Part shown: in pieces, positions 19,043 through 51,830 of the stretch
Layout: the number at the start of each line of letters is the position of its first letter
Numbering within the stretch: the first letter of the stretch is position 1
The notes under the pieces: model-generated
Seen by the model: only the letters and a program-made list of their open reading frames with translations
Told to the model about the DNA's origin: nothing
Database searches by the model: none
Virus record (IMG/VR): IMGVR_UViG_3300049926_000051
Coordinates: 1 to 51,830 of that record
DNA from: a virus
Lineage: Duplodnaviria; Caudoviricetes
Length of the DNA stretch: 51,830 nucleotides
Strand: one strand, 5' to 3'
Translations under genes and position numbers: made by a program

Positions 19043-20491
19043 GTGGCGCTAGTTCCTCCCCGTCGAGCCGCTCAAGAACTGATCCGCCGGTCGCGCGTAG
19101 CAGCATTTGACCCGCGGGCGCTTTGCCATGCCGGCCAACTACCGTACACCGTCAGTCGCGCCAAGCGCAAGGTCGTACGTACGCCGAGGCGTGTCGGTAA
19201 GACGTACGCTGAGGCCATGGTGCTATTGCGGGGCGCCATGGAGCCCCCATGGGGCAATCAGTTGTATATCACGCTGAGCCTCAAGAATGCGAAGCGGATG
19301 GCATGGCCGACCATCAAGAAACTTAACAAGGAGTTCGACCTCGGCGGCCAGGTCAACGATGCCGAGGGAATGATTCGGTTTCCGAACCTTCCCAATGAAC
19401 CCATTATCTACCTCGGCGGGTGCAAAGACTCCGCAGAGATTGAGAAAATTCGTGGTTACGAGGGTGGCTTAAAGCGAGTCATCATCGACGAGGCACAGGC
19501 GATTCGCAAATCCCTGTTCGGCCCGCTGATCGAAGAGATCGTCGAGCCGGCCCTACTGGACTACAACGGTGAGTTGGACGTGGTCGGGACTCCCGGCGCC
19601 GTCAAGGCCGGTTACTTCCATGACATCGACGTTGGCGACAAGTCCGCAAGTTGGGAGCACTTCTTTTGGGACGCCTATGCCAATACCTTCCTTGCGGAAA
19701 AGCGAGGCCAGGCGACCGACGAGATGCTCGAGCAAGTCCGGCGAGAACACAACTGGCAAGAGGACTCGCCGCGGTATGTCCGTGAGTACCTTGGGCAGTG
19801 GGTTACCGACACCGACTCGCTTGCGCTGCATTACGATGCGGAGCGCAATAGGTGTGATTGGCAAAACGAACCTGTCCCTGGTTGGACCTACCTCCTGACC
19901 TTCGACATCGGATTTGAGGATGCCGACGCAATAGCCGTTCTGGGCTATCCTCCTAACGCCAGGAAGCTTCATCTCGTTCGCGAACTGATTACCCGCAAGC
20001 AGGGGATAACTGAGCTTGGAACGCAGCTCAAGACGTTATATGAGACCTATCACCCGTTGCAGGTTATCGGCGACTTGGGCGCACTGGGCAAGAAGATCGG
20101 CCACGAGCTAGAAGCGCGGTGGCACCTGCCCGTCGAGGCAGCAGAAAAGAGCCGCAAGGCGGAACACATCGAACTCCTGGACGACGGCTTGCGTACTGGC
20201 GCGATGCTGGCGCCACCTGACTCGGTGTTCGCGCAAGACTGCGCAATCGTGCAATGGGATGCTGACCAAAAAGCGAAGGGTAACCTCGTGTTCGACGCAT
20301 CGTTCCATAGTGACGTTGTAGATGCCTGCCTCTATGGCTACCGCGCTGCCTTCCACTGGACCGTTGACGACTCGGCGCAACCTGACGTCCCGATCGAAGT
20401 AGCGCAGCACCGTGAAGCCGTGCGGGCAGAGTTGCGCGAAGTAAGGCAGCAGGAAGACGACGCGTATGAACGGAACATGGGATGGGGATAA
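19043..20491 (+). CDS. terL: terminase large subunit
   Basis: PRRVGKT Walker A, IIDEAQ Walker B, GTP coupling motif, REYLGQW, and nuclease acids (FDIGFED, HSDVVDA). Confidence 0.93.
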   Translation: MALVPPRRAAQELIRRSRVAAFDPRALCHAGQLPYTVSRAKRKVVRTPRRVGKTYAEAMVLLRGAMEPPWGNQLYITLSLKNAKRMAWPTIKKLNKEFDLGGQVNDAEGMIRFPNLPNEPIIYLGGCKDSAEIEKIRGYEGGLKRVIIDEAQAIRKSLFGPLIEEIVEPALLDYNGELDVVGTPGAVKAGYFHDIDVGDKSASWEHFFWDAYANTFLAEKRGQATDEMLEQVRREHNWQEDSPRYVREYLGQWVTDTDSLALHYDAERNRCDWQNEPVPGWTYLLTFDIGFEDADAIAVLGYPPNARKLHLVRELITRKQGITELGTQLKTLYETYHPLQVIGDLGALGKKIGHELEARWHLPVEAAEKSRKAEHIELLDDGLRTGAMLAPPDSVFAQDCAIVQWDADQKAKGNLVFDASFHSDVVDACLYGYRAAFHWTVDDSAQPDVPIEVAQHREAVRAELREVRQQEDDAYERNMGWG

Positions 20492-21628: not shown

Positions 21629-21916
21629 ATGGCATTCCCTAGCGCCGAAGAACTACGCGCCCTTCTCTCTGCTGCCCGCGACGCCGGGTGTACTCACCTC
21701 AAGATTTCGCCAACCGGCATCGAGGCGGAGTTTGCGCCCAAGTCGGTCCTCCAGGAGATCAACGAAACCGTCCCGCTGGCTTTCGATCCGCTGGATATCG
21801 TTCGTCGAGAGGTTGCCGCTCAGACGAAGACGTCGGCCGTTGACCTTTTCGACGTGGTCGCCTCCGGTGGTCGTATCGTCGATGCTGGCAACCCTGACCC
21901 GACGGCAGCCCAGTAA
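21629..21916 (+). CDS. small protein upstream of the portal
   Basis: MAFPSAEELRALLSAARDAG...; TAATG coupling to the portal. Confidence 0.7.
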   Translation: MAFPSAEELRALLSAARDAGCTHLKISPTGIEAEFAPKSVLQEINETVPLAFDPLDIVRREVAAQTKTSAVDLFDVVASGGRIVDAGNPDPTAAQ

Positions 21917-23808
21917 TGGGAGCCACGGGCGGCAACGCATTCCTGAGCCAGAACGGCCGCTGGTGGAATTCCGATGAGGCGTCGCTTCCGACCACGCTTG
22001 CCGCAGTGGCGGCTAATCTAGAATCCTACGACTTCGAGCGGCGTGCTCGTAACCTGGTCTTCGCGCGTCTAGCGACGAACCGAGATCTCCCGAACATCTA
22101 CGGCCTGAGCATCACGCGGTCGAACGTCCGCGCGCTGGACTTCAGCGACTGGCGAGCGCCGGTCTTCAATGTCGTTGGCTCGAGTGTCGAAACGCTGGTC
22201 AACAAAGTCGGGCGTAACAAGCCATGGATCCTGTTCTTGACCGACGGTGGCGACTTCAGCGCCCGCATGGCCGGCAAGAAAAAGTCCCGCTTCGTCGACG
22301 GCATCTTCCACGAAACCAACACGTATCGCCTGACTCGCCAGGCTTGCCAGGACGCGCTGACCTACGGCGACGGGCTCATCAAGGTTTCGGCATCGCTCGA
22401 CGGCAAGTCGATCGTCCATGACGTCGTCCTGCCTGACGAGATTCTGATCGACCCGTGGGACGCGCTGTATTTCGGCAAGTGGCCCCGATCTCTCATCCAT
22501 CGCACGTTCGTTTCGCGCACAGAGCTCCTGAGCATCTTCGGCGACGACGAAGCGATCCGCTTCGCGATCGAAACCGCGCCCGGTTCGTACCAAGGCCCGA
22601 TGTGGGCAGGCGGCGCAACCGGCAACCAGCACAACGCAATGGTTGCCGTACTCGAAGGATGGAAGCTTCCCGACGCTGACGGTACACCAGGGCGTCACGT
22701 GCTTTGTATATCGGATCGAGTTGCCCTGATCGACGAAAAGTACAAACGTAAGCGATTCCCGTTCGCCAAGATGGCGTGCGTTAGCGCGGGGCGTGGGTTC
22801 TGGAACATCGGCATCCCTGAGATTCTCGGGCCGTTCCAATCGAACATCAATCGCACTCAGATGGTGATCGACGAATGCCAACGACGCCTTGCGTCAGGGC
22901 GCTGGCTTGTCCCGACCACATCTGGTGTCACCGACGACGCCCTTGGCTCGCGGGCCGCGGGAATCATTCGCCACAACCCGAATCAGCCTCCCGTGTTCAT
23001 TACGCCAGCTGCAGTACCCCCTGAGCTCTATCGGCACCTTGAAGACACGATCCAGCGAGCCTACAAGCGAGTCGGTATCTCCGAACTCGCCGCTCAGGCG
23101 CAGAAGCCCGCTGGCCTGAACTCGGGCGAAGCACTGCGCACGTTCGAGAACAGCGAGTCCGAGCGTTACGTAACCCTCGGCATGGCACTTGAGGATTTCG
23201 TCCAGGATATCGCGACGCTCGATCTTGAATTGGCCGCTGAGATTGAGCCCAAGGTTCGGGCGCCGCGCGGTGGCGGCATCGACGTCATTGATTGGTCCGA
23301 GATCAAGGGACTCCGCGACTCCGACGCCATCATGAAGGCCTTCCCGGTCTCATCGCTTCCGACAACGCCCGCAGGTCGTTTGCAACGTGCGGCTGAGATG
23401 TTCCAGACCGGCCAAATCAGCAAAGACGACTACCTGCGAATCATCGATTATCCCGATACCCAATCGATCATCGATTTGCAGACCGCAAGCCGCGATGCTA
23501 TCGATTTCATGCTGGACAAAATCGTCGAGGAAGGCATGTTTGAGTCGCCCGAGCCCTACATGGACTTGACGCTTGCGATCACCGTGGCGCAAAACCGGTA
23601 CCTGCGCGAACGGACCCAAGGATGTCCGGAAGATCGTCTTGAGTTGCTTCGTCGCTTCATGGACTCCGCCAAGGATCTTCAGGACAAGATCAACGGAACT
23701 GGCCAGAATGCTGCCCCGGGCCAGCCGAACGTGAACCAGGCTCAAGCAACGGCCGCTGGTCTTCCTCCGCCTGTCCCGCCCGTGATTGGTGCGCCGAAGG
23801 CGGCTTAA
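21916..23808 (+). CDS. portal protein
   Basis: 630 aa after terL; FPF..., RVGISEL..QKPAGLNSGEAL portal-like motifs; P/Q/A-rich tail. Confidence 0.85.
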   Translation: MGATGGNAFLSQNGRWWNSDEASLPTTLAAVAANLESYDFERRARNLVFARLATNRDLPNIYGLSITRSNVRALDFSDWRAPVFNVVGSSVETLVNKVGRNKPWILFLTDGGDFSARMAGKKKSRFVDGIFHETNTYRLTRQACQDALTYGDGLIKVSASLDGKSIVHDVVLPDEILIDPWDALYFGKWPRSLIHRTFVSRTELLSIFGDDEAIRFAIETAPGSYQGPMWAGGATGNQHNAMVAVLEGWKLPDADGTPGRHVLCISDRVALIDEKYKRKRFPFAKMACVSAGRGFWNIGIPEILGPFQSNINRTQMVIDECQRRLASGRWLVPTTSGVTDDALGSRAAGIIRHNPNQPPVFITPAAVPPELYRHLEDTIQRAYKRVGISELAAQAQKPAGLNSGEALRTFENSESERYVTLGMALEDFVQDIATLDLELAAEIEPKVRAPRGGGIDVIDWSEIKGLRDSDAIMKAFPVSSLPTTPAGRLQRAAEMFQTGQISKDDYLRIIDYPDTQSIIDLQTASRDAIDFMLDKIVEEGMFESPEPYMDLTLAITVAQNRYLRERTQGCPEDRLELLRRFMDSAKDLQDKINGTGQNAAPGQPNVNQAQATAAGLPPPVPPVIGAPKAA

Positions 23809-24001
23809 GTGTCTGACGCATCGAGTAGCATTGGTCATAAAACTGATGATTCGTTCTGGCCGTCCAAGCCAGATCCGAAGGCGGTTTTTGCCGAGACATT
23901 CCCATCCCCTGTTTCGCGAATCGACTGGACGCTTTTTTGCGACGTCGAAGATCTCGTCAAGCGCAACATTCTGCGACGGGTAACGACTAAACCGTAATAC
24001 C

Positions 24002-24016
24002 GGGTACGGCTACGCC
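24002..24016 (+). promoter_or_regulatory. late-promoter-like motif, copy 4
   Basis: GGGTACG-GC-TACGCC, 6 nt before ATG 24023. Confidence 0.65.
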
Positions 24017-24022
24017 AGGGCA

Positions 24023-25153
24023 ATGGATCCCGTCACGGCCGTTATCACGGACGCAGGTAGCGCGGCAACTGGAACCGCGGACGCCGTCGCTGGCAATCCG
24101 AATCCGTCTCTCAGTGCCGATATGGCAACTGGAACGGACACCGCTTCGACTCAGGGAGAATCGGATTCAAGCGGGGCTCATACCCCCGCCTCAGCGGGTT
24201 CGACTCCCGCCCCTGGCACCACTCCGGGCGAAACTCCGCCCGAGCCGCGCGCCAATGTGACGGCAAGGCTGGCCGCCCTGTCCCGGGAGAACCGGGAGGC
24301 AAAGCGCATCGCGCGCGAAGCCGGGAACGCCCGGAAAGCTGCTGAAGCCAGGGCGGCCGAAGCTGCTGCGAAGATATCGGACTTCGACGCCTTGATCGCC
24401 AAGGCAAAAGCCGACCCGTCAACTATCCCCGCTCTGGTCGATAAACTCGGTATCACGTTCGAGCGCATCGTTGAGTCTTATGCCGCGTCGGGAGAGGAAG
24501 CAACGGCCGAGGCAAAGACCGCGAAGGAATTGGCTGACATTCGCGCCGAACTGGCGGAGACGAAGAAGCTTCGTGAAACTGAACTGGCCGAGAAAACGCG
24601 GCGTGCTGAAGAGTCGCAGCGAACAGAAGTCATCTCGACTATCTCGCAGCGAATCGAAAAAGCAAAAGACAAGTTCGAAATCTGTGCGCGGCTCGGAGAC
24701 GAAGCGGCAAACGATGTTTTTAAGCTCGTGGTCGCGACCTGGGAGAAAGCCGGGCGCCCTGAGTTGATGCCGGGTGAGTTCGAAGAGGCTGTTGACGCGG
24801 CCATGGAAGTCACCGAGGCAGGGTACGAAGATCGCGGTAAGAAGCTCGCGAAGGCAGCGCGCGCAGCGGCTACGCCCGGGGCTACCGCAACCAACGATTC
24901 CAACAAAGGCGGTCTGGTCAAACAGGGCGTTGCTCTGCCTGACTCGCTGACTGCTAAACCACTGAGCGACAAAGATCAGGACATTCTAAGAGGGCTCACC
25001 GACAAGACGGCCCCGGCGTACGACTCCCAACGAGCGAAGCCGAGAACAATCAACTCATCTCTGGGTGGTTCCGCCCCTCCGCGCCAATCGACGCCGGGAG
25101 CGATGGACCCGCGCGACGCACTTAGGGAAGTGCTGCGCCCGTACGTCCGGTAA
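24023..25153 (+). CDS. capsid scaffolding protein
   Basis: Between portal and capsid; disordered N-terminus, A/E/K coiled coils, short C-terminal helix. Confidence 0.78.
   Translation: MDPVTAVITDAGSAATGTADAVAGNPNPSLSADMATGTDTASTQGESDSSGAHTPASAGSTPAPGTTPGETPPEPRANVTARLAALSRENREAKRIAREAGNARKAAEARAAEAAAKISDFDALIAKAKADPSTIPALVDKLGITFERIVESYAASGEEATAEAKTAKELADIRAELAETKKLRETELAEKTRRAEESQRTEVISTISQRIEKAKDKFEICARLGDEAANDVFKLVVATWEKAGRPELMPGEFEEAVDAAMEVTEAGYEDRGKKLAKAARAAATPGATATNDSNKGGLVKQGVALPDSLTAKPLSDKDQDILRGLTDKTAPAYDSQRAKPRTINSSLGGSAPPRQSTPGAMDPRDALREVLRPYVR
24150..24221 (+). tRNA. initiator tRNA-Met(CAT)-like element embedded in the scaffold CDS; D loop truncated
   Basis: Anticodon arm CGGGG-CTCATAC-CCCCG, 5-nt variable loop, T arm GCGGG-TTCGACT-CCCGC, 3' CCCTGGC-A-CCA. 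Confidence 0.6.
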
Positions 25154-25195: not shown

Positions 25196-26428
25196 ATGAT
25201 CGCTGATATCGTCGCAAACGTAGAGCCTATCTACAAGCAGTGGTACGCGTCCAGCTACGAGAACATGTTTTATCGCGATCGGCCCGCCATGGGCATGATC
25301 GCCAAAGAGCGAGCCGGCGGTGAGCAGGTTAAGCAGCCCATCAAGGTGAGCCAGGGTCCCGGTCAGTCGGCGACCTTTACCAACGCTCAGGGCAATGTCG
25401 GTCTTGCGGTTCGTCGCCCGTTCCTCGGTGATTGGGGCTTGGACTATTCGATCGCTCGTGTCTCCAACACGCTGATTGAGCTTTCGCAGGACAACAAGGG
25501 CGCAATCGTCAAGGCGCTCGCGGATGAGACCGAAACTGCGGTCGATGCTCTGGCGCAGCGCTTTGAGCACGACATGTTCCGTTCGGGCTACGGCGACTGC
25601 GGCGTGATCGCTTCGATCTCGACCACCGTTGTCACTCTGACCCTTCGCGCCGACGCTCAGAACTTCTTCCCCGGGCAGGTTCTTGTTGCTGCACCCGCGG
25701 TCAACACCGGCGTGCTCATCAGCGGTGGCGCGACCGCACTGGTGTCGGCCGTCGATCGCGACGCTGGCACCGTGTCGAGCGCAACCAACTGGACCACGCA
25801 GATCGCTGCGCTTGTCGCTACCAACGTCCTGTTCCAGCAGGGCGACCGTACCTCGGCTGCGACCCCGTCGCCGCTTAAGGTTGTGGGCTTCGCTGGCTGG
25901 CTGCCCCTGACGGCTCCGACCGGCGGTGACAACTTCTTCGGCGTCGATCGTTCGCTCGATCCGGTCTCTCTGGCTGGCGTGCGCGTCGATGGTCGTAGCA
26001 AGCCTATTTCGCAGGCGGTCTATGACCTCGCGGTGCGCATCGGTGAAAACGGTGGCGCTCCTGACACCTGCTTCATCTCGTTCGACTCGTTTGGAAAGCT
26101 CGCCGTCGAGCTCGACAACCGGGCCGTCTACGACAACATCCAGGGCGCGGGCATCACGATCTCGTACGAGGCGATTACTGTCGCCGGTCCGAAGGGTCGT
26201 ATCCGCGTGTTCCCGTCGACGTTCTGCCCGATGGATCGCTTGTTTGTCATCACCAAGCGTGATTGGACGATCTACTGCGGCGGTGGCGCGAACCCGATGT
26301 ATCCCGCGCTCAAGGGCGTCAGCTTGCTCGACGTCTCGAATGCGGACAGCACCGAGGTGCGCCACAAGACGCTGGCCCAACTGATGTGTGCGGCTCCGGG
26401 TCACTCCGGGGTGTCGCAGCTCGCCTAA
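25196..26428 (+). CDS. major capsid protein
   Basis: 410 aa after the scaffold; TAAGGAG site; strong codon bias; FFGVDRS motif. Confidence 0.85.
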   Translation: MIADIVANVEPIYKQWYASSYENMFYRDRPAMGMIAKERAGGEQVKQPIKVSQGPGQSATFTNAQGNVGLAVRRPFLGDWGLDYSIARVSNTLIELSQDNKGAIVKALADETETAVDALAQRFEHDMFRSGYGDCGVIASISTTVVTLTLRADAQNFFPGQVLVAAPAVNTGVLISGGATALVSAVDRDAGTVSSATNWTTQIAALVATNVLFQQGDRTSAATPSPLKVVGFAGWLPLTAPTGGDNFFGVDRSLDPVSLAGVRVDGRSKPISQAVYDLAVRIGENGGAPDTCFISFDSFGKLAVELDNRAVYDNIQGAGITISYEAITVAGPKGRIRVFPSTFCPMDRLFVITKRDWTIYCGGGANPMYPALKGVSLLDVSNADSTEVRHKTLAQLMCAAPGHSGVSQLA

Positions 26429-27191: not shown

Positions 27192-27224
27192 GGGCACCCG
27201 CTGGTAACTCGGCGGGTGTTTCTT
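27192..27224 (+). terminator. intrinsic terminator
   Basis: gggcacccgctg-gtaact-cggcgggtgttt followed by a T-rich run. Confidence 0.65.
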
Positions 27225-27226
27225 AA

Positions 27227-27886
27227 TTGGCACAAACCCTCGCCAACCTTAGGCTCGAGTCGCAACAGCGAGCCAATCAGGAAAACAAAACGCTCGTCGC
27301 GACGAGCGAATGGAATCGCTATATCAACCTTGCGATGTCCGAACTCTACGACCTGGTCATCTCGGTCAATCCGCACTACTACGTCTCGTCATCGCCGTTC
27401 ACGCTGACGAGTACGAACTCTCTGGACCTAACCTCGCTTAGTCCGCTTTTCTATAAGCTCCGCGGTCTCGATTACCTGCCGTCGACAACGGGACGCGCGA
27501 TCACGCTGCACCCGTTCAACTTCGCCGAACGTAACAAGCAGGGATACCGCGCCTATGCAATCGAAGGTACGAAGCTAACGATCCTGCCCAACACCAACTT
27601 CGCAGGGCCGTACACCGTCTGGTATACGCCGGTTCCGCCGAGCTTGGTGATCGATGGCGACACACTTGATTCGATTCTTGACGTGTGGGCTGAATACATC
27701 ACGGTCACTGTCGCAATTGTTGCCGGCATCAAGGAGGAGTCGCAGAACCTGCAAGAGTTGATGGCTCTCAAACAAGGGCTGATCGAACGTATGGCCAAGG
27801 CGGCTTCGAATCGAGACGGCGAGCCGGCACAGGCCGCAGATCTCATGTCGCCGTCCACCGCGGTTGACATGGACCTGTGGTACTGA
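27227..27886 (+). CDS. head-tail adaptor (tail tubular protein A-like)
   Basis: TLANLR...EWNRYIN.A.SELYDL, ILP....YTVWY.P, WAEYI; size and position. Confidence 0.75.
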   Translation: MAQTLANLRLESQQRANQENKTLVATSEWNRYINLAMSELYDLVISVNPHYYVSSSPFTLTSTNSLDLTSLSPLFYKLRGLDYLPSTTGRAITLHPFNFAERNKQGYRAYAIEGTKLTILPNTNFAGPYTVWYTPVPPSLVIDGDTLDSILDVWAEYITVTVAIVAGIKEESQNLQELMALKQGLIERMAKAASNRDGEPAQAADLMSPSTAVDMDLWY

Positions 27887-28203
27887 TGGCGGTCAAGTTC
27901 GACAAACTCACCAAGCAGGCAGCCGACACCGTCACAGGCTCGGACCTAAATCGCGTTCAGGCGAACGTTGACGCAACGGTCAAGCAGCTTGGACAGGGCG
28001 ACAAGCTGGTAACCGTCTCGTTCGCGTCGGCGAGCACTGACACCCCGCTCTACCATCACCTCGGACGGCCGATGGTTGGCTACCGCGTGGTCAGATCGGC
28101 CGACTACGTGAACATTCGTGACGGATCTCCCAGTCCGCTGCCCAACGATTTCGCCAACGTCCAGTGCTTGAATATCACGACCGTGACCTTCGAAGTCTTC
28201 TGA
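27886..28203 (+). CDS. small tail/neck protein
   Basis: HHLGRPMVGY motif; TGATG coupling. Confidence 0.65.
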   Translation: MAVKFDKLTKQAADTVTGSDLNRVQANVDATVKQLGQGDKLVTVSFASASTDTPLYHHLGRPMVGYRVVRSADYVNIRDGSPSPLPNDFANVQCLNITTVTFEVF

Positions 28204-28216
28204 ACGCCTGTTCAGG

Positions 28217-28323
28217 CTTGACTAAGCTCATCCAATACGTGATGCTTGAGTCAAGAAAAAACGCCGCCTCGGTCTGATCACCGAGACGGCGCCACCCCAA
28301 AGCCGCTCAAGACGGCAGAGAGG
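28217..28323 (+). promoter_or_regulatory. sigma70-like promoter, minus-strand terminator and ribosome-binding site cassette
   Basis: TTGACT-N17-GATGCT within the inverted repeat CTTGACT/AGTCAAG; A6 plus GC hairpin at 28256-28291; GAGAGG at 28318. Confidence 0.5.
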
Positions 28324-28373
28324 CTACTTCGATGGATACCATGAGGGCGTTTCGGTTTCTAGTTCTGTGGGTC

Positions 28374-28388
28374 GGGTTCATCCGCGCC
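28374..28388 (+). promoter_or_regulatory. late-promoter-like motif, copy 6
   Basis: GGGTTCA-TC-CGCGCC, 6 nt before ATG 28395. Confidence 0.55.
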
Positions 28389-28394
28389 GTGCTG

Positions 28395-31382
28395 ATGGCA
28401 CTCGCGCGCCAAGTTGTACCCGTTCGCCTCCAAGGACTCGATCAGCTTTCGCCCAAGCAGATCGGGATCACTGGCAAGCTCGATTCGCTGGTCAACATGT
28501 ACGCTCAGCAGGGCGATCAGGGAGGCTATGAGTTCGTCCCACGTCCCGGCGTTACGGCGCTCTCGCGAACTGCCGATGTCGGAAGCATCACGACGGGAAT
28601 GCGGCTGGCGACGCTTGGGACGTCGTTGCTGCTTCTTACGGGTGGCGCTTGCTACCGACGGGCCACTGACGAATGGCACTCGGTCAGCCAGACGTATCCT
28701 ATTGTCGGCGTGGACAGTAAGTCGATCAGCACCGGTCAGGTACAGACCTATTCGTGCGACCCCGTCTACGTAAATGGCTTCACGATTCATGTGTGGACCG
28801 AGTTTTCTTTTACGGTTACCGGGAAAGCATATTATTCGGTCTACGACGCTAACGGCAATGCGGCTATCACCCGCGGTCTGCTTGAAGCGCCCGGAGGCAG
28901 CGGAACCTTCGGGATTCGCGTCGTAACGTCTGGCACTACCGCGATTGTTGTTTGGAATTCGCAACTCGGCAGCATCAAGGCCGCCAAGATTGATACGACA
29001 AACCTCAACACTGCGCCGACTCCGGTCGTTGTAACTGCTGGTAGTAACCAGCTGACCTTCGACGCACAAACTGTTGACTCTAGCGGTACCGTCGCCGTCC
29101 TGTATCAGGGCCTAACCGGTCGTATTACTCAGAACTTGATCACGGTGTCATCAATGGCGGTTGGTGCTCCGGTGGACTACGCATCGCTGACGTTCGTTGG
29201 GACGCTGGCATATCTGACGAATGATTTTTCGACCAACGTTCTTTACGTCGCGCTCAGCGACACGACCGCGGGACTGCGAGTTAGTAACTTCAACGGCACG
29301 ACCCTCGCGCTGAACAGTACGTCTACCTTTGATGCCGCCGCAACCGGCAATATGATCAACATTGCCGGCAACCGTACCGGCGGAACGATAACCGTATATT
29401 ATACGGCCGACTCCACAGTCCCTACGCCAAGCCAGCCGATCAATTATAAAATAATGACGTCGACAGGGAGCGGATCGTCGGTCGTTGTCCGCGGTATCCA
29501 ACTGGCGTCACGCGTGATTCCGAGTGGCTCGACGCTGTATGCGATGGCTCGTTATCTTCCGGATTCGACGGCTACAACCGGAGATATGAACTATTTCTTG
29601 CTTGATCTTACCCATGCGCTGGCCATCGGAGAGGCCGCGCATGACGTTGCCGGTTTCTCCGGAAGCGCGGTTCTGCCGAATCTTGCCGCGTCTAGCACAT
29701 CGAACAAATGGCTAACCGCTGGCCAGGTCGTGGTTGGAGAGGGTAGCTCGGGCGGATCTCTTTTTGCCTACACCGGCGCAAATGCGATCACGTTTACCAT
29801 TGCTGATACGTCGGTTGGGCGAGGGGTTGAACTCAATGGCGGACTTATATTGCCCGGGTCGCTGCCGATGTATTACGACGGCTCGACGCTGGTCGAGGCT
29901 GGTTTTCCCATCCCTCCTGCTCAAGCCTTCGCGCCAACCCTGGCAGGCGGCGGGGGGCTAACCGCGAGTTCAACCTATACGTGCCGTTTTATTTACGAGT
30001 GGTTCGACGGCGCGGGTAATCGTCACCAGAGTTCTCCGTCCGCCCCGCAACAGTTCACGTTGGCGGCTGGTCAAACCCAAGCGACGTTCGCGCTTCCAAC
30101 ACTACGGCTAACTCGCAAGACCAACGTCAATATCGTGTTTGAGCGAACGGTTTCGAATGGCGATGGGTCTGCATTCTTTCAAGAAGGTATCGTTGGCAAC
30201 GATCCAACGGTGGATACCGTTTCGTTTGTTTCCACGATCGGGGACACCGCACTGAAGGGAGGTGAACCTCTCTACACGAACGGCTACATCCTCGAGAACA
30301 TCGCTCCCCCGCCCTGCCGGGCCATGGCGATTCATCGCGGTCGTATCCTCGTGGGCGGCATCGACGGGGATCCTACTGCCGTCTGGTTCAGCAAGGATGT
30401 TGAGCCAGGGTTCGGCATCGCGTTCAACGACGGGCTTGTCTCGCGTCTGAACTCTGCCAACGAAACCGTTACCGCCGTTGGCTCGATGGACAACTACGCC
30501 GTCGCTTGCACCAACACAACGACGTGGGCGAGTTCGGACGATTATCCCGACGACACTGGAAATCCAGGCGTTCTCCGCTTCTCTCAATCCTCGTCTGTCA
30601 ACGGCTGCGCTTCCGCGACCACGCTCGCCCGGGACGATGAAGGTATCATGATTTGGAACGCAAAAAAGGCGCCTGGACCATGGCGCCTCGATCGCAGCCT
30701 AAACTGGAGTTGGGTCGGTTCCAAAGATCAGCTCGACGCGGCGAGCCTCGCTCCGGTGGCGATGCTTTCGGTGCCCGGACTGAACCAGGTCCGTGTCGTC
30801 GGCCAGTACGCAACCAACACGGCCGCCGCATTGACGCGAGAGAATGTTTTCGGCACTTGGGCCTTTTGGCAATACCTCAAGTACCCCGTCGGCGGACTTC
30901 CGACGTTTGTCGATGCGATCGTATGGAACGGCAACGTTGCCTACCTAACCACCGACGGTTACGTTACGGTCGAAGACACGACGACGTACGGGGACGAGGG
31001 AACGACGATTATCCACTCAATCGCGTTGTCTAACTTCAATTTTGCCGGCGTGGCAGGGTATCAGCGGATCTACGTGAGTCAGTTCACGGGTCGCGTTATC
31101 GGTAGCGGAACCGGCGTAACGTTGATCGCGTCGCAAACTCCGGACAATATCCTGCTTGTGCCGGACAAGTCCAAGCTAGTTACGGCCTCCGCTAACGGTA
31201 AATTTGGCCTCGAGGTTGACCCGGACGCTTACGGCAAGTGTTCGTCATACACGATCGGGCTTCGCAATGCCGCCGGGAGCGGTAACGATCCCCTGACTGC
31301 CTGGACGCTCTCCGCCGTGACCGCAGTTGTGGGCGTCAAGCCTAACGCCAGCCGTCTGCCGCCTTCGTTCCGTATGACCTAA
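28395..31382 (+). CDS. tail nozzle / tubular protein B-like (DNA stabilisation) protein
   Basis: ~995 aa, all-beta, RPG near the N-terminus, HRGRI...VWFSK; podovirus gene order. Alternative start at 28332. Confidence 0.75.
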   Translation: MALARQVVPVRLQGLDQLSPKQIGITGKLDSLVNMYAQQGDQGGYEFVPRPGVTALSRTADVGSITTGMRLATLGTSLLLLTGGACYRRATDEWHSVSQTYPIVGVDSKSISTGQVQTYSCDPVYVNGFTIHVWTEFSFTVTGKAYYSVYDANGNAAITRGLLEAPGGSGTFGIRVVTSGTTAIVVWNSQLGSIKAAKIDTTNLNTAPTPVVVTAGSNQLTFDAQTVDSSGTVAVLYQGLTGRITQNLITVSSMAVGAPVDYASLTFVGTLAYLTNDFSTNVLYVALSDTTAGLRVSNFNGTTLALNSTSTFDAAATGNMINIAGNRTGGTITVYYTADSTVPTPSQPINYKIMTSTGSGSSVVVRGIQLASRVIPSGSTLYAMARYLPDSTATTGDMNYFLLDLTHALAIGEAAHDVAGFSGSAVLPNLAASSTSNKWLTAGQVVVGEGSSGGSLFAYTGANAITFTIADTSVGRGVELNGGLILPGSLPMYYDGSTLVEAGFPIPPAQAFAPTLAGGGGLTASSTYTCRFIYEWFDGAGNRHQSSPSAPQQFTLAAGQTQATFALPTLRLTRKTNVNIVFERTVSNGDGSAFFQEGIVGNDPTVDTVSFVSTIGDTALKGGEPLYTNGYILENIAPPPCRAMAIHRGRILVGGIDGDPTAVWFSKDVEPGFGIAFNDGLVSRLNSANETVTAVGSMDNYAVACTNTTTWASSDDYPDDTGNPGVLRFSQSSSVNGCASATTLARDDEGIMIWNAKKAPGPWRLDRSLNWSWVGSKDQLDAASLAPVAMLSVPGLNQVRVVGQYATNTAAALTRENVFGTWAFWQYLKYPVGGLPTFVDAIVWNGNVAYLTTDGYVTVEDTTTYGDEGTTIIHSIALSNFNFAGVAGYQRIYVSQFTGRVIGSGTGVTLIASQTPDNILLVPDKSKLVTASANGKFGLEVDPDAYGKCSSYTIGLRNAAGSGNDPLTAWTLSAVTAVVGVKPNASRLPPSFRMT

Positions 31383-42215: not shown

Positions 42216-43069
42216 TTCCGCCTCCAAAGACCAGAACGCCACCCGGCGGCGTAGGCGAGGCGCTGGTGCTCAGCGAGAGTGACATCGAGGAAGTTGCCGT
42301 TCTCGTTGCTCCACCAATAGCAGCCGCCCTGTGCGCCGCAGTCGCACGCATCGCGAAACCTCACTTGCGCCCCCGCCTCGCGCGCGTGGCGCACGCTTCC
42401 ATCGAAACGATACACCGCTTGCAATCGACCTCGGCGAGCTGACTCGTGCAGAACACGCCCGCAGCCCCCGACGTAGTGCCGCATAAAGCTCGGTAGTCGT
42501 CAGTTTCCCGGTCGATAGCTAGCAGGTGCGTTTTCATCGCTTGACCCGCCTCGCGCGCGTGGCGCGGTCGAGCGTTACAACCAGGACTGTCAGCGCCATT
42601 CTGCCCGCGTCAATCGCCAAGCCGTCGCGCACGGCCCGCAGCGTCTTCAGCGCCTCCCGTTGCAGCGCGCGGATTCGACGGCGTTCAAGAGTAGCGCCAT
42701 CCTCCTCGCCAACCTCGAAACCGGCGTCCCACGCGGCATCGACTCGCTTGTCGGTTTCGCTTTTCAAGCTCCCTCCGTTCCGCGGCGCTTGAGGCTGGCG
42801 CAGTACAGACAGTTGCCAACGTCTCTATCAGCTCGTGATAGCGCCATACATTCGACCGAGCAGTAGTCGTCGTTGCGTAGGTCGCGACTAGCCTCACCCC
42901 GTTCCCGCGCCTCGGCGATGGTTTGGGTATACGATTCCGCAAGTTGGTCGCAGTGCCAGCCATGCGACCACCCATGCGATGCGCACCACGGCATACCGTT
43001 ACGCTCGGCCCAGTCGTGCGCCAGTCGCCGACCGTGCCGCCTATCCTCATCGGTGATACGGGAGCTCAT
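42212..43069 (-). other. four small coupled hypothetical genes (42212-42364, 42361-42537, 42534-42767, 42764-43069)
   Basis: Successive ATGA, GTGA and TTGA overlaps. Confidence 0.55.
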
Positions 43070-49619: not shown

Positions 49620-50594
49620 TTGGGTATTACCGACGACGAGTTAATAGCTCGCGCGCTGGAGATAGTTAAGCAGAGAGTTGCGGGTACTAGCGCACCTTCG
49701 CTTACCGTCGCGCAGTTGTACGACCTATATGAGGCGGATCACAACCATACGCGTGGGTGGCGTGTGGTTGGTGGTCGCCTGCGCATGCTTCGGGATACCG
49801 TCTACGCTGACGGCATCCCATGCATTGGTGTGCGCGATGTGATGAGCCTCCGCCCTCTCGACTGGGAGGACTACCGGCGATATCTCGCGGCGCAGGAGTT
49901 CGCCGTTGGACGAAAGCGATCGGCTTGGACGGTCGCCTTACACCTGATCTCGCTCAAGACGATGATCAATTGGGCGGTTGAATCGGGACGCTTGCCGTAC
50001 AACCCGCTCGACCGGGCGAAAGCTAACGCCAAGAGCAAGCGAGAGATCGCGCCGACAGAGGCGCAGATATCGCTGCTACTGTCGCAGGCTGACCTACGTA
50101 TGCGCTATGTGATCTTGGCCGCATGCGACGCGGGCATGCGCCGAGACGAACTCCGGCTCTGCGAACGCGCCTGGGTAGACCGCAAGGCGAAGCAGATCAA
50201 GCTAGACGCCAAGGTCTGTAAGCTTCGTAAGGGCCGTGTCGTCCCGGCTACCACGCGTCTCCTGGACGCAATAGCCGCGATTCCTGAGCATGTTCGGCTC
50301 CCTTGGATACTGACCAACCCAGTGACAGAAGCGGCCTACAGCGACAGCCTGTTGGATCGCAATTTTCGCGATCTCGCCGATAGCGTCGGCCTGATCGGAG
50401 TGCGTATCCACGACTTGCGGCATGCGTGCGCAACTCACATGGTCGCACGCGGTATTCGCCTAACTCGCGTGCAGAAGATCCTTGGCCACGAGCGGCTTGA
50501 GACGACATTCCGTTACGTCAATGATCAGGCCGAAGACCTGAGCGAGGTCATCGCCGTCTTTGAAGCCGGGATCGAAAAAGACAAGCGGCGCTAG
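49620..50594 (+). CDS. int: tyrosine recombinase / integrase
   Basis: GMRRDEL (R), K, HDLRH, LGH, RY catalytic residues. Confidence 0.93.
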   Translation: MGITDDELIARALEIVKQRVAGTSAPSLTVAQLYDLYEADHNHTRGWRVVGGRLRMLRDTVYADGIPCIGVRDVMSLRPLDWEDYRRYLAAQEFAVGRKRSAWTVALHLISLKTMINWAVESGRLPYNPLDRAKANAKSKREIAPTEAQISLLLSQADLRMRYVILAACDAGMRRDELRLCERAWVDRKAKQIKLDAKVCKLRKGRVVPATTRLLDAIAAIPEHVRLPWILTNPVTEAAYSDSLLDRNFRDLADSVGLIGVRIHDLRHACATHMVARGIRLTRVQKILGHERLETTFRYVNDQAEDLSEVIAVFEAGIEKDKRR

Positions 50595-51136: not shown

Positions 51137-51807
51137 GTCTCCCGGTTGGTTTCTGGCTGAAGATTCTCATCAACGGCGAGAGTTGCCACGGCGGATCTCT
51201 CAAGTGGTCACTCCCGAAAGACGGTCAGCCGGGCGATTGGCACGAAGTTAGCGGCCCGGTACGTACGTGCCAAAACGGCTTCCACCTGACGCGGCAACCG
51301 GTTGAATGGTGGCCGGCCGCCGCCACTGCATATCTCGCGGAGCCTGACGGAAAAGGAGATTCGGAAGGCGATTCTGACGTCAAGACCGCGTTCCCTCGGT
51401 GCCGATTGATTCGCGAAGTGACTACCGCAGAACTCGCCGAACTGGGCGTTTTTCTGGCTGGGCAGCACGGATCGATAAAGAACAGAAAAGGCATTGCGCT
51501 TCCAGGCTCCAGCGTCGTGGCCTGGGAAAACTCCAGCGTCGTGGCCCGGGGAAACTCCAGCGTCGAGGCCCGGGAAAACTCCAGCGTCGTGGCCTGGGGA
51601 AACTCCAGCGTCGTGGCCTGGGGAAACTCCAGCGTCGTGGCCTGGGAAAACTCCAGCGTCGAGGCCCGGGAAAACTCCAGCGTCGTGGCCTGGGAAAACT
51701 CCAGCGTCGTGGCCTGGGAAAACTCCAGCGTCGTGGCCTGGGGAAACTCCAGCGTCGAGGCCCGGGAAAACTCCAGCGTCGAGGCCCGGGAAAACTCCAG
51801 CGTCGAG
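51133..51807 (+). CDS. N-terminal half of the octapeptide-repeat protein (globular domain plus repeats)
   Basis: GDWHEV.GPV..C.NGFH domain (DUF7666-like, recalled), then NSSV repeats running off the contig end. Confidence 0.85.
51508..51807 (+). repeat. 24-nt coding tandem repeat (about 12.5 units)
   Basis: Same unit as 1-343. Confidence 0.97.
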
Positions 51808-51813
51808 TGCGGG

Positions 51814-51828
51814 AGAGCACACGTCTGA
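51814..51828 (+). other. Illumina TruSeq adapter remnant (artefact)
   Basis: AGAGCACACGTCTGA is part of AGATCGGAAGAGCACACGTCTGAAC. Confidence 0.92.
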
Positions 51829-51830
51829 GA

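Follow-up and report, generated by a model that had tools for sequence, protein, structure and literature searches.

The arrangement of a transfer RNA (tRNA) gene nested in frame within a protein-coding gene is very rarely reported. The closest described system is the selC gene of Alphaproteobacteria, which was predicted to be nested in selB and which its author calls the first nested tRNA in a bacterial open reading frame (ORF), its processing being proposed there to yield a non-stop messenger RNA (Mukai 2021, PMC8124441). Here we describe a comparable locus in the IMG/VR virus record IMGVR_UViG_3300049926_000051, the whole stretch of 51,830 base pairs (bp) being termed the window below. The locus is a 72-nucleotide (nt) element with the form of a methionine tRNA, which lies inside the ORF occupying the position of the scaffold gene, between those for the portal and the major capsid protein. 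The two cases share a whole sense-strand tRNA within an ORF, a non-conserved extension of the host protein and a proposed choice between tRNA and protein as products, and both are bioinformatic predictions. They differ in that the selC case is cellular, is located in a C-terminal extension and pairs the tRNA with its own elongation factor, whereas the window case belongs to a phage, resides in a linker, N-terminal or internal, of a gene for head assembly whose function has no evident connection with the tRNA, and recurs in four deeply diverged clades as well as in other types of ORF. In the full-text literature searched, with most subscription journals and supplements outside its scope, selC-in-selB was the only comparable bacterial case and no phage tRNA nested in an ORF was found.

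The element itself has a closer counterpart among cultured phages. It matches 11 Bacillus phage records with 78-80% identity over its positions 3-66, and in the phage vB_BsuM-Goe3 (KY368640.1, 32240-32307) the match coincides with an annotated 68-nt tRNA-Met(cat), which scores 58.8 bits with R1, a covariance model built from the first four sequences of the present family. The Goe3 gene shares with the window element A8, the 4-bp D stem GAAT/ATTC, a small D loop containing GG (TGGT in Goe3), the CUCAUA anticodon segment, the T arm and an acceptor strand of the form NGCAGGG. It differs in having a U1-A72 pair where the window copy shows a C1.C72 mismatch, and in being free-standing between ORFs near other tRNA genes (a tRNA-Arg lies about 400 nt downstream), whereas the window copy is within coding sequence. 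Viral tRNA-like structures and mRNAs cleaved by RNase P offer a further parallel, in that a tRNA-shaped fold in a viral messenger may recruit tRNA enzymes. The corresponding Rfam family, RF00233 (Tymo_tRNA-like), reached 23.3 bits, under its gathering threshold of 40; in distinction from that family, the window element is homologous to real tRNA genes and is no mimic, and it is internal to an ORF of a DNA phage. Phage tRNAs have also been argued to evade host anticodon nucleases, with VapC targeting the formylmethionine initiator, tRNA-fMet (van den Berg 2023); this link is a lead for function and constitutes no evidence for the window element.

Taken together, comparisons of the element with its relatives make it probable that the window carries a working, initiator-like, short-D-arm tRNA-Met gene, embedded in frame and in sense orientation in the disordered N-terminal linker of the scaffold protein and cut out of the late transcript. 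The original prediction from the DNA had offered several fates for the element; that of a real, processed tRNA is favoured because the same tRNA-Met occurs in phage tRNA arrays, because it is annotated as such in Goe3, and because the anticodon CAT is present in 30/30 stretches returned by a scan that left the anticodon free; cutting of the late mRNA by RNase P/Z would follow from it. The fate of an anticodon-nuclease decoy is speculative. The DNA is dual-coding, the constraints of a tRNA and of a protein linker falling on one stretch.

The cloverleaf and the frame that hosts it

The element and its parts, all on the plus strand, are:

24150..24221, plus strand: nested 72-nt tRNA-Met(CAU) with short D arm, from ARAGORN, the minimum-free-energy fold, covariation and model R1
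24150..24156, plus strand: 5' strand of the acceptor stem, CTCAGGG, pairing with 24211-24217
24158..24168, plus strand: short D arm, with a 4-bp stem GAAT/ATTC and a 3-nt loop CGG
24172..24188, plus strand: anticodon arm CGGGG-CTCATAC-CCCCG, anticodon CAT at 24179-24181
24194..24210, plus strand: T arm GCGGG-TTCGACT-CCCGC
24211..24221, plus strand: 3' strand of the acceptor stem, CCCTGGC, followed by the discriminator A (24218) and an encoded CCA (24219-24221)

The tRNA spacing, arm pairings, 5-nt variable loop and A-CCA end that had been read from the DNA are all present, as are the mismatch at C1, the six acceptor pairs and the GAAT-CGG-ATTC D arm. The acceptor CTCAGGG/CCCTGGC includes a U2.G71 wobble among its six pairs and ends in the C1.C72 mismatch, and the 7-bp acceptor, the 5-bp anticodon stem with its 7-nt loop and the 5-bp T stem with its 7-nt loop are spaced as in a tRNA. 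ARAGORN, which had been proposed as a check, calls tRNA-Met(cat) at exactly 24150..24221 on the plus strand as its sole tRNA in the window. The minimum-free-energy fold of the element is the cloverleaf, and RNAalifold independently yields the same structure from the alignments. The folding energy is unremarkable (z -1.5, with 16/200 shuffles equally stable). Canonical tRNAs use U8, A14, G18 G19 and T54 U55 C56 A58 in their tertiary contacts; of these features the element has a canonical T loop, TTCGACT, and a D loop of CGG only, with A at position 8 in 23/23 members of the family. By itself the window copy is a borderline in-ORF call of the type usually discarded by annotators, and since its single-copy Rfam score (see below) and its folding energy are weak, the case that it exceeds chance is made by comparison. 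A minus-strand reading, to which the Rfam tRNA-Sec model gave 23.1 bits, was rejected as the mirror of the plus-strand fold, the T-loop motif and CAT being on the plus strand.

The features of the host frame are:

24023..25153, plus strand: scaffold-position ORF, 376 amino acids (aa), containing the tRNA, between the portal and major capsid genes
24023..24250, plus strand: low-complexity N-terminal region, residues 1-76, predicted to be disordered, hosting the tRNA
24257..24259, plus strand: in-frame GTG 3' of the tRNA, where the public gene call (298-aa product) begins and from which a short isoform might be initiated

Reading through the element, the ORF gives SSGAHTPASAGSTPAPGT. The element spans codons 43-67 of the 376-aa frame, with C1 as the second base of codon 43, and its anticodon CAT is translated as a His codon. 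Searches of Pfam and PHROGs returned no match for this ORF and tblastn against GenBank phages no scaffold homologue; a metagenome scan with the scaffold alignment recovered at least three loci, two of which were already known. In an AlphaFold2 model based on alignment A2, residues 1-76 have predicted local distance difference test (pLDDT) values below 50 and no secondary structure, and the protein is helical from residue 79 onwards; the name scaffold is used here in view of this predicted fold and the position of the gene. A low-complexity stretch rich in A/P/G/T/D/E precedes a conserved [LV]T.R[LM]A motif, read by eye, in 24/24 retrieved scaffold homologues, the shortest such stretch being that of P0014, a protein of 315 aa. 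The frame of the element that is used encodes G/S/T/P/A at 204/253 residues and a single basic residue, the two alternative frames each contain 55 Arg/Lys, and one of these has stops. The bland frame, the predicted disorder and the low-complexity N-termini of the homologues thus make it plausible that a tolerant linker in a heavily transcribed operon provides a safe site for a tRNA. Read-through translation of the element in the window phage is likely from the comparisons available: the 'MDP' start of the ORF resembles the 'MDP...' starts of P0004, P0011, P0012, P0018 and P0023, and the start type is conserved across the window clade. The G+C content by codon position left the coding status of the N-terminal region undecided.

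Conservation of the element across phages

A search with the major capsid protein identified 109 related viral contigs, the best 80 of which were taken further. The loci assessable at 83% or higher capsid identity were those of the window, L003, L004, L005, L006, L007, L008 and L010; the L009 locus is truncated within its scaffold gene. Four of the eight assessable loci carry the element, namely the window, L006, L007 and L008, always inside the scaffold ORF and in the same frame. The three distinct sequences among these copies display six double changes that preserve pairing, which fall in both the D and anticodon stems and at pair 2-71, a count reached by 0/500 shuffles and for which register slides give none. 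Between the window and L006 the element is identical at 58/72 positions, as against 16/56 and 33/56 in its flanks and 67% DNA identity in the remaining scaffold gene, and the peptide that it encodes differs at many codons among the close relatives.

The closest relative, G001 (the contig of L003, 93% capsid identity), has no nested copy. It instead carries an array of about 28 tRNA genes at 27204-31128 on the minus strand, which the window lacks, and this array includes a CAU tRNA-like gene of 96 nt (L190 1501-1596, minus strand, equivalent to G001 28929-29024), a combination which we count in favour of the nested element being a tRNA gene. This array gene contains a 31-nt insert in the D region, scores 41.5 bits with R1 and receives no ARAGORN call. 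Several other tRNAs of the G001 array, the 67-nt tRNA-Arg(ccg) among them, are short and have their anticodon at position 27-31, so that reduced D arms in this phage group are not confined to tRNA-Met. A further tRNA match in this genome (L110 594-715, G001 42393-42514, plus strand) scores 44.5 bits, has its anticodon region enlarged by about 50 bases and receives no ARAGORN call; it may be intron-bearing or otherwise interrupted. A 93-nt tRNA-Ala called by ARAGORN in L004/L005 (2678-2770, minus strand) was set aside as likely false in G+C-rich DNA, Rfam giving nothing at E values up to 5.

Further copies were found by pattern scans derived from the alignment, and these score 63-87 bits with R1. 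Nested copies occupy scaffold-position ORFs just 5' of the capsid gene in three more clades, making four in total: the L117/L118/L124 clade, with capsid and portal proteins 26% and 24% identical to those of the window, the L138/L140 clade (capsid 30% identical) and the L147/L151/L153 clade (35%). Other nested sites are a 2015-aa ORF in L132 and a 94-96-aa ORF 5' of a portal-like gene in L130 and L137. As envisaged for a dual-coding element, the frame is open through the cloverleaf and in phase, not just in the window, where this had been claimed, but in 15/15 nested loci examined, L147/L151/L153 being a further nested group, and C1 is the second base of a codon in every nested case. In the L117 clade conserved protein segments stand on both sides of the element within one ORF, and relatives without the element keep these segments with a different linker of similar length in its place, which indicates that the element is truly within translated sequence. 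Identity of the element amounts to 52-64/72 across clades and 52-62/72 within them, the L006 and L118 copies being identical at 64/72 positions with capsid proteins only 24% identical; this pattern fits either strong conservation of a tRNA gene or exchange between phages. In L124 and L129 (2164-2235) the D loop is CAG in place of CGG and the T loop begins TGC in place of TTC, so that both partners of the contact between these loops have changed together; neither copy receives an ARAGORN call.

Pairing is kept in 94.2% of cells across the 23 distinct sequences of the family, 13/21 pairs include changes on both sides (0/500 shuffles reach this), 87 cells are changed on both sides (0/500), and the covariation is 0.505 against a shuffled mean of 0.156 (0/500). 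The signal persists when only the 11 distinct nested copies are considered, as had been proposed in the form of a check of relatives for compensatory pairs: 93.5% of cells are paired, 8 pairs have changed on both sides (8/500 shuffles reach this), 29 cells are changed on both sides (0/500) and the covariation is 0.367 against a shuffled mean of 0.117 (0/500). Kinship between the sequences is not removed by these controls, though it is retained in the slide controls, and register slides of the nested set give at most 5 both-side cells. In the family as a whole 3/4 pairs of the D stem bear both-side changes. The loops, for their part, are nearly fixed: among the 23 members C13 and G15 of the D loop and T50, C52, A54 and C55 of the T loop are invariant and G14 is conserved in at least 90%, and the invariant or near-invariant positions family-wide comprise A8, G9, the D-loop C-G-G and C30, A31, T32 and A33 of the anticodon loop. 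Invariance is greatest in the 3' half, which comprises the T arm and an acceptor strand. The compensatory changes in the nested copies show that the fold is under selection while nested.

Three of the four pattern scans fixed CTCATA and are uninformative on the anticodon, which they preset. In the fourth, only the T loop and the 5' portion with the acceptor and D loop were fixed, and all stretches returned by it contain CAT. That the anticodon is conserved under these conditions speaks for an RNA engaged in decoding or charging rather than for a simple signal for cleavage.

Free-standing members of the family are found in the tRNA arrays of L141, L144, L145, L150, L156, L157 and L158, which belong to larger phages of lower G+C, one such member being situated 4 nt from a tRNA-Thr. 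In seven contigs with a G+C content of about 60%, a lone free-standing gene follows a stop codon, and L133 has a free-standing copy directly 5' of a gene start. L088 (61.7 bits with Rfam) and the phage PA5oct have tRNA-Met genes of canonical size that share this acceptor stem. The short-D-arm tRNA-Met itself ranges from Bacillus phages to uncultured soil phages. One array-bearing genome, G009 (the contig of L141, about 41% G+C), further has in its tRNA array (L163 1072-1146, L167 1051-1129) a tRNA with a CTA anticodon, which ARAGORN names tRNA-Pyl and which is of the amber-suppressor type, as well as a call with a four-base anticodon; these hint at stop-codon recoding in that phage.

Weighing the tRNA reading and its alternatives

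Several observations weigh against a working nested tRNA. The Rfam tRNA model RF00005 gives the window copy 20.8 bits, under its gathering threshold of 29, and no window match passes at that level; the nested copy of G003 also falls short with 26.2 bits. The free-standing family members score 32.4, 29.7 and 26.8 bits. The window element has neither the U8 of canonical tRNAs nor their usual D loop. Some nested copies look mildly degraded: 7 of the 11 distinct ones end in CCG, the other 4 in CCA; L124 and L129 have G at the universal U55 position; and the L008 copy has an A.C in the T stem and the L117 copy a D stem that needs a shifted register. The element is patchy and dispensable: it is missing from all 24 other retrieved scaffold homologues and from the whole of the complete relatives G002 and G011, and in the L117 clade it is present in 6/12 assessable members. 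The public gene call (P0001, 298 aa, 100% identical across 79% of the ORF) begins past the element at GTG 24257; because of this downstream start, translation through the element in the window phage is argued entirely from comparison, and since relatives carry CTG at the position of this GTG, it is not conserved as a start. Finally, the sequencing runs listed for the phage comprise one DNA run and no RNA run.

The initiator character of the element is less uniform than its fold. Bacterial tRNA-fMet is distinguished by the lack of a Watson-Crick pair at 1-72 and by a run of three G-C pairs bordering the anticodon loop. The window copy resembles it in the CAU anticodon, the unpaired C1.C72, A73, the GGG/CCC by the anticodon loop and an A-U at the second D-stem pair, and it has an acceptor stem in common with the initiator-looking tRNA-Met of L088 and PA5oct. 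It differs from tRNA-fMet in its much reduced D arm, with a 3-nt loop, and in A8 for U8. The three G-C pairs and the unpaired first position that had been noted as initiator determinants hold for the window copy and do not extend uniformly to the family, a further point on the negative side: positions 1-72 are unpaired in 18/23 members and paired or wobbling in the other 5/23, and the pairs by the loop include G-C, C-G, A-U and G-U. As the three G-C pairs are not conserved and the 1-72 mismatch is not uniform, we use initiator-like as a label only, and place an actual role in initiation at somewhat under even odds.

Of the competing explanations, the one closest to a nested tRNA gene is that the element would be a tRNA-like processing signal only, a site at which cutting by RNase P or RNase Z divides the late transcript and so reduces the amount of scaffold relative to capsid, the released RNA never being charged or employed by the ribosome. 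RNase P needs mainly the acceptor and T-arm half of its substrates, and the departures of nested copies from tRNA norms (CCG in 7/11, G55 in L124/L129, A8, the 3-nt D loop), along with their constant position within a highly expressed head-module ORF in four clades, are what such a signal might display. It would not, however, need an anticodon loop with CAT, which is kept in 11/11 distinct nested copies and throughout the anticodon-free scan, and the same RNA occurs in tRNA arrays, where there is no ORF to regulate, so that we regard this explanation as unlikely. A mobile or passenger cassette derived from a tRNA, spreading between phages and surviving in frame in tolerant linkers with little benefit to them, would account for the patchiness within clades (4/8 and 6/12), for an element identity as high across clades as within them, as in the pair L006 and L118, and for the occurrence in three unrelated types of ORF, always in the sole frame that yields a bland peptide. 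The in-frame palindromic elements of Rickettsia resemble such a cassette. Yet each of the three genomes searched whole (the window, G003 and Goe3) has a single copy, neither terminal repeats nor target duplications were noticed in those flanks that were inspected, and the compensatory changes speak for selection on the fold; moreover, the cross-clade identity needs no transfer, since strong conservation is normal for tRNA genes. A cassette accordingly appears to us a rather poor explanation, behind that of a cleavage signal.

Two of the fates named in the original prediction fare considerably worse. A phage attachment site (attP), or a core for recombination by the phage integrase with a matching host tRNA-Met gene, would be in keeping with the tyrosine integrase gene of the window and with the 3' half being the most invariant part of the element. 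The element is nonetheless about 25 kilobases from the integrase, in the middle of the head operon; the complete relatives G001 and G002 have integrase homologues and no nested element; such a core would not require the compensatory changes that occur in the D arm, anticodon stem and 5' strand of the acceptor; and the same element occurs in tRNA arrays. No tRNA-like match was found near the integrase, nor was a prophage of this clade split at the element found among genome contigs, where no relative exceeds 37% capsid identity. The distance from the integrase, the integrase-bearing relatives that lack the element and the covariation in the 5' half leave this proposal without support, and we judge it very improbable. 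Scarcely any weight, and marginally less than to an attachment site, is given to the view that the element is a captured tRNA gene in decay, or a cloverleaf arisen by chance in coding DNA rich in G+C. The sub-threshold Rfam score, the unremarkable folding energy and the doubtful 93-nt ARAGORN call in L004/L005, without Rfam support, might be so explained; the compensatory cells in nested copies, which no shuffle matches, the independent model matches of 70-87 bits in other clades and the invariant loops could not, and a fossil in particular is at odds with a fold that is under selection while nested.

Returning to a working nested tRNA gene, the course of events might be as follows. The tRNA would be carried on the late portal-scaffold-capsid transcript. 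Ribosomes reading the element would produce a harmless Gly/Ser/Thr/Pro/Ala linker, and RNA that folds would form the cloverleaf, whose 5' end RNase P would cut and whose 3' end would be cut by a 3' nuclease. The released tRNA would be charged by methionyl-tRNA synthetase by way of its CAU anticodon. The cut would leave a 5' fragment without a stop and a scaffold body without a start codon, the downstream capsid gene keeping its own start. As this would cost the scaffold message, a given transcript would yield either the tRNA or the full-length scaffold. These steps are inferred, as are an initiator role and any influence on the amount of scaffold relative to capsid.

An extension of this scheme, which we hold to be speculative and considerably more likely to be wrong than right, is that the nested tRNA acts as a switch of the head operon, giving either the full-length scaffold message or an initiator-type tRNA together with a cut message that makes capsid, thereby setting the scaffold-to-capsid ratio and supplying an initiator late. 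The ratio would be set by a race between unfolding by the ribosome and cutting by RNase P, and the short-D-arm initiator supplied late would possibly be unseen by host nucleases that act on tRNA-fMet. Were such a switch to exist, the recurrence in four deeply diverged clades would reflect selection for the coupling and not accident.

If the element is indeed a nested tRNA gene, in-ORF tRNA predictions, which annotators routinely discard, can be real, and the locus would provide a compact system for the competition between translation and tRNA processing on a single RNA, raising the question of whether phages tune the ratios of head proteins by such competition. It would also show what a tRNA-Met with a short D arm can still do, and suggests the disordered linkers of phage proteins as hiding places for non-coding genes.

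Genomic context

The virus record has a completeness estimate of 98% and a G+C content of about 59%. Its genes of relevance are:

19043-20491: large terminase gene
21916..23808, plus strand: portal gene, 630 aa, PF23899 SU10_portal at 34 bits (cut-off 30), 5' neighbour of the scaffold-position ORF
25196..26428, plus strand: major capsid gene, 410 aa, phrog_14242 major head protein at E 3.4e-4, with its own start, downstream neighbour
49620-50594: tyrosine integrase, PF00589 at 64 bits

The presence of the tyrosine integrase gene suggests that the phage is probably temperate, and homologues of this integrase with 29-48% identity are encoded by G001, G002, G003 and G006. A host search comparing the capsid protein with genome contigs yielded no relative above 37% capsid identity, the figure already given for the prophage search, and a scan around the nested element for promoters and terminators found none. 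A motif containing GGGTAC precedes the scaffold start codon by about 15-25 nt in the window and in several relatives; the stretches concerned (23982-24022 in the window and their counterparts in L002, L006 and L008) are unlike a Shine-Dalgarno sequence. At the two ends of the record there is a 24-nt tandem repeat with 17 copies in register, at 5-496 and 51363-51830, which runs off both ends. The repeat array sits in open frames that reach the record ends; the assembly break probably falls within a single gene that bears the repeats, and a circular or terminally redundant genome is possible.

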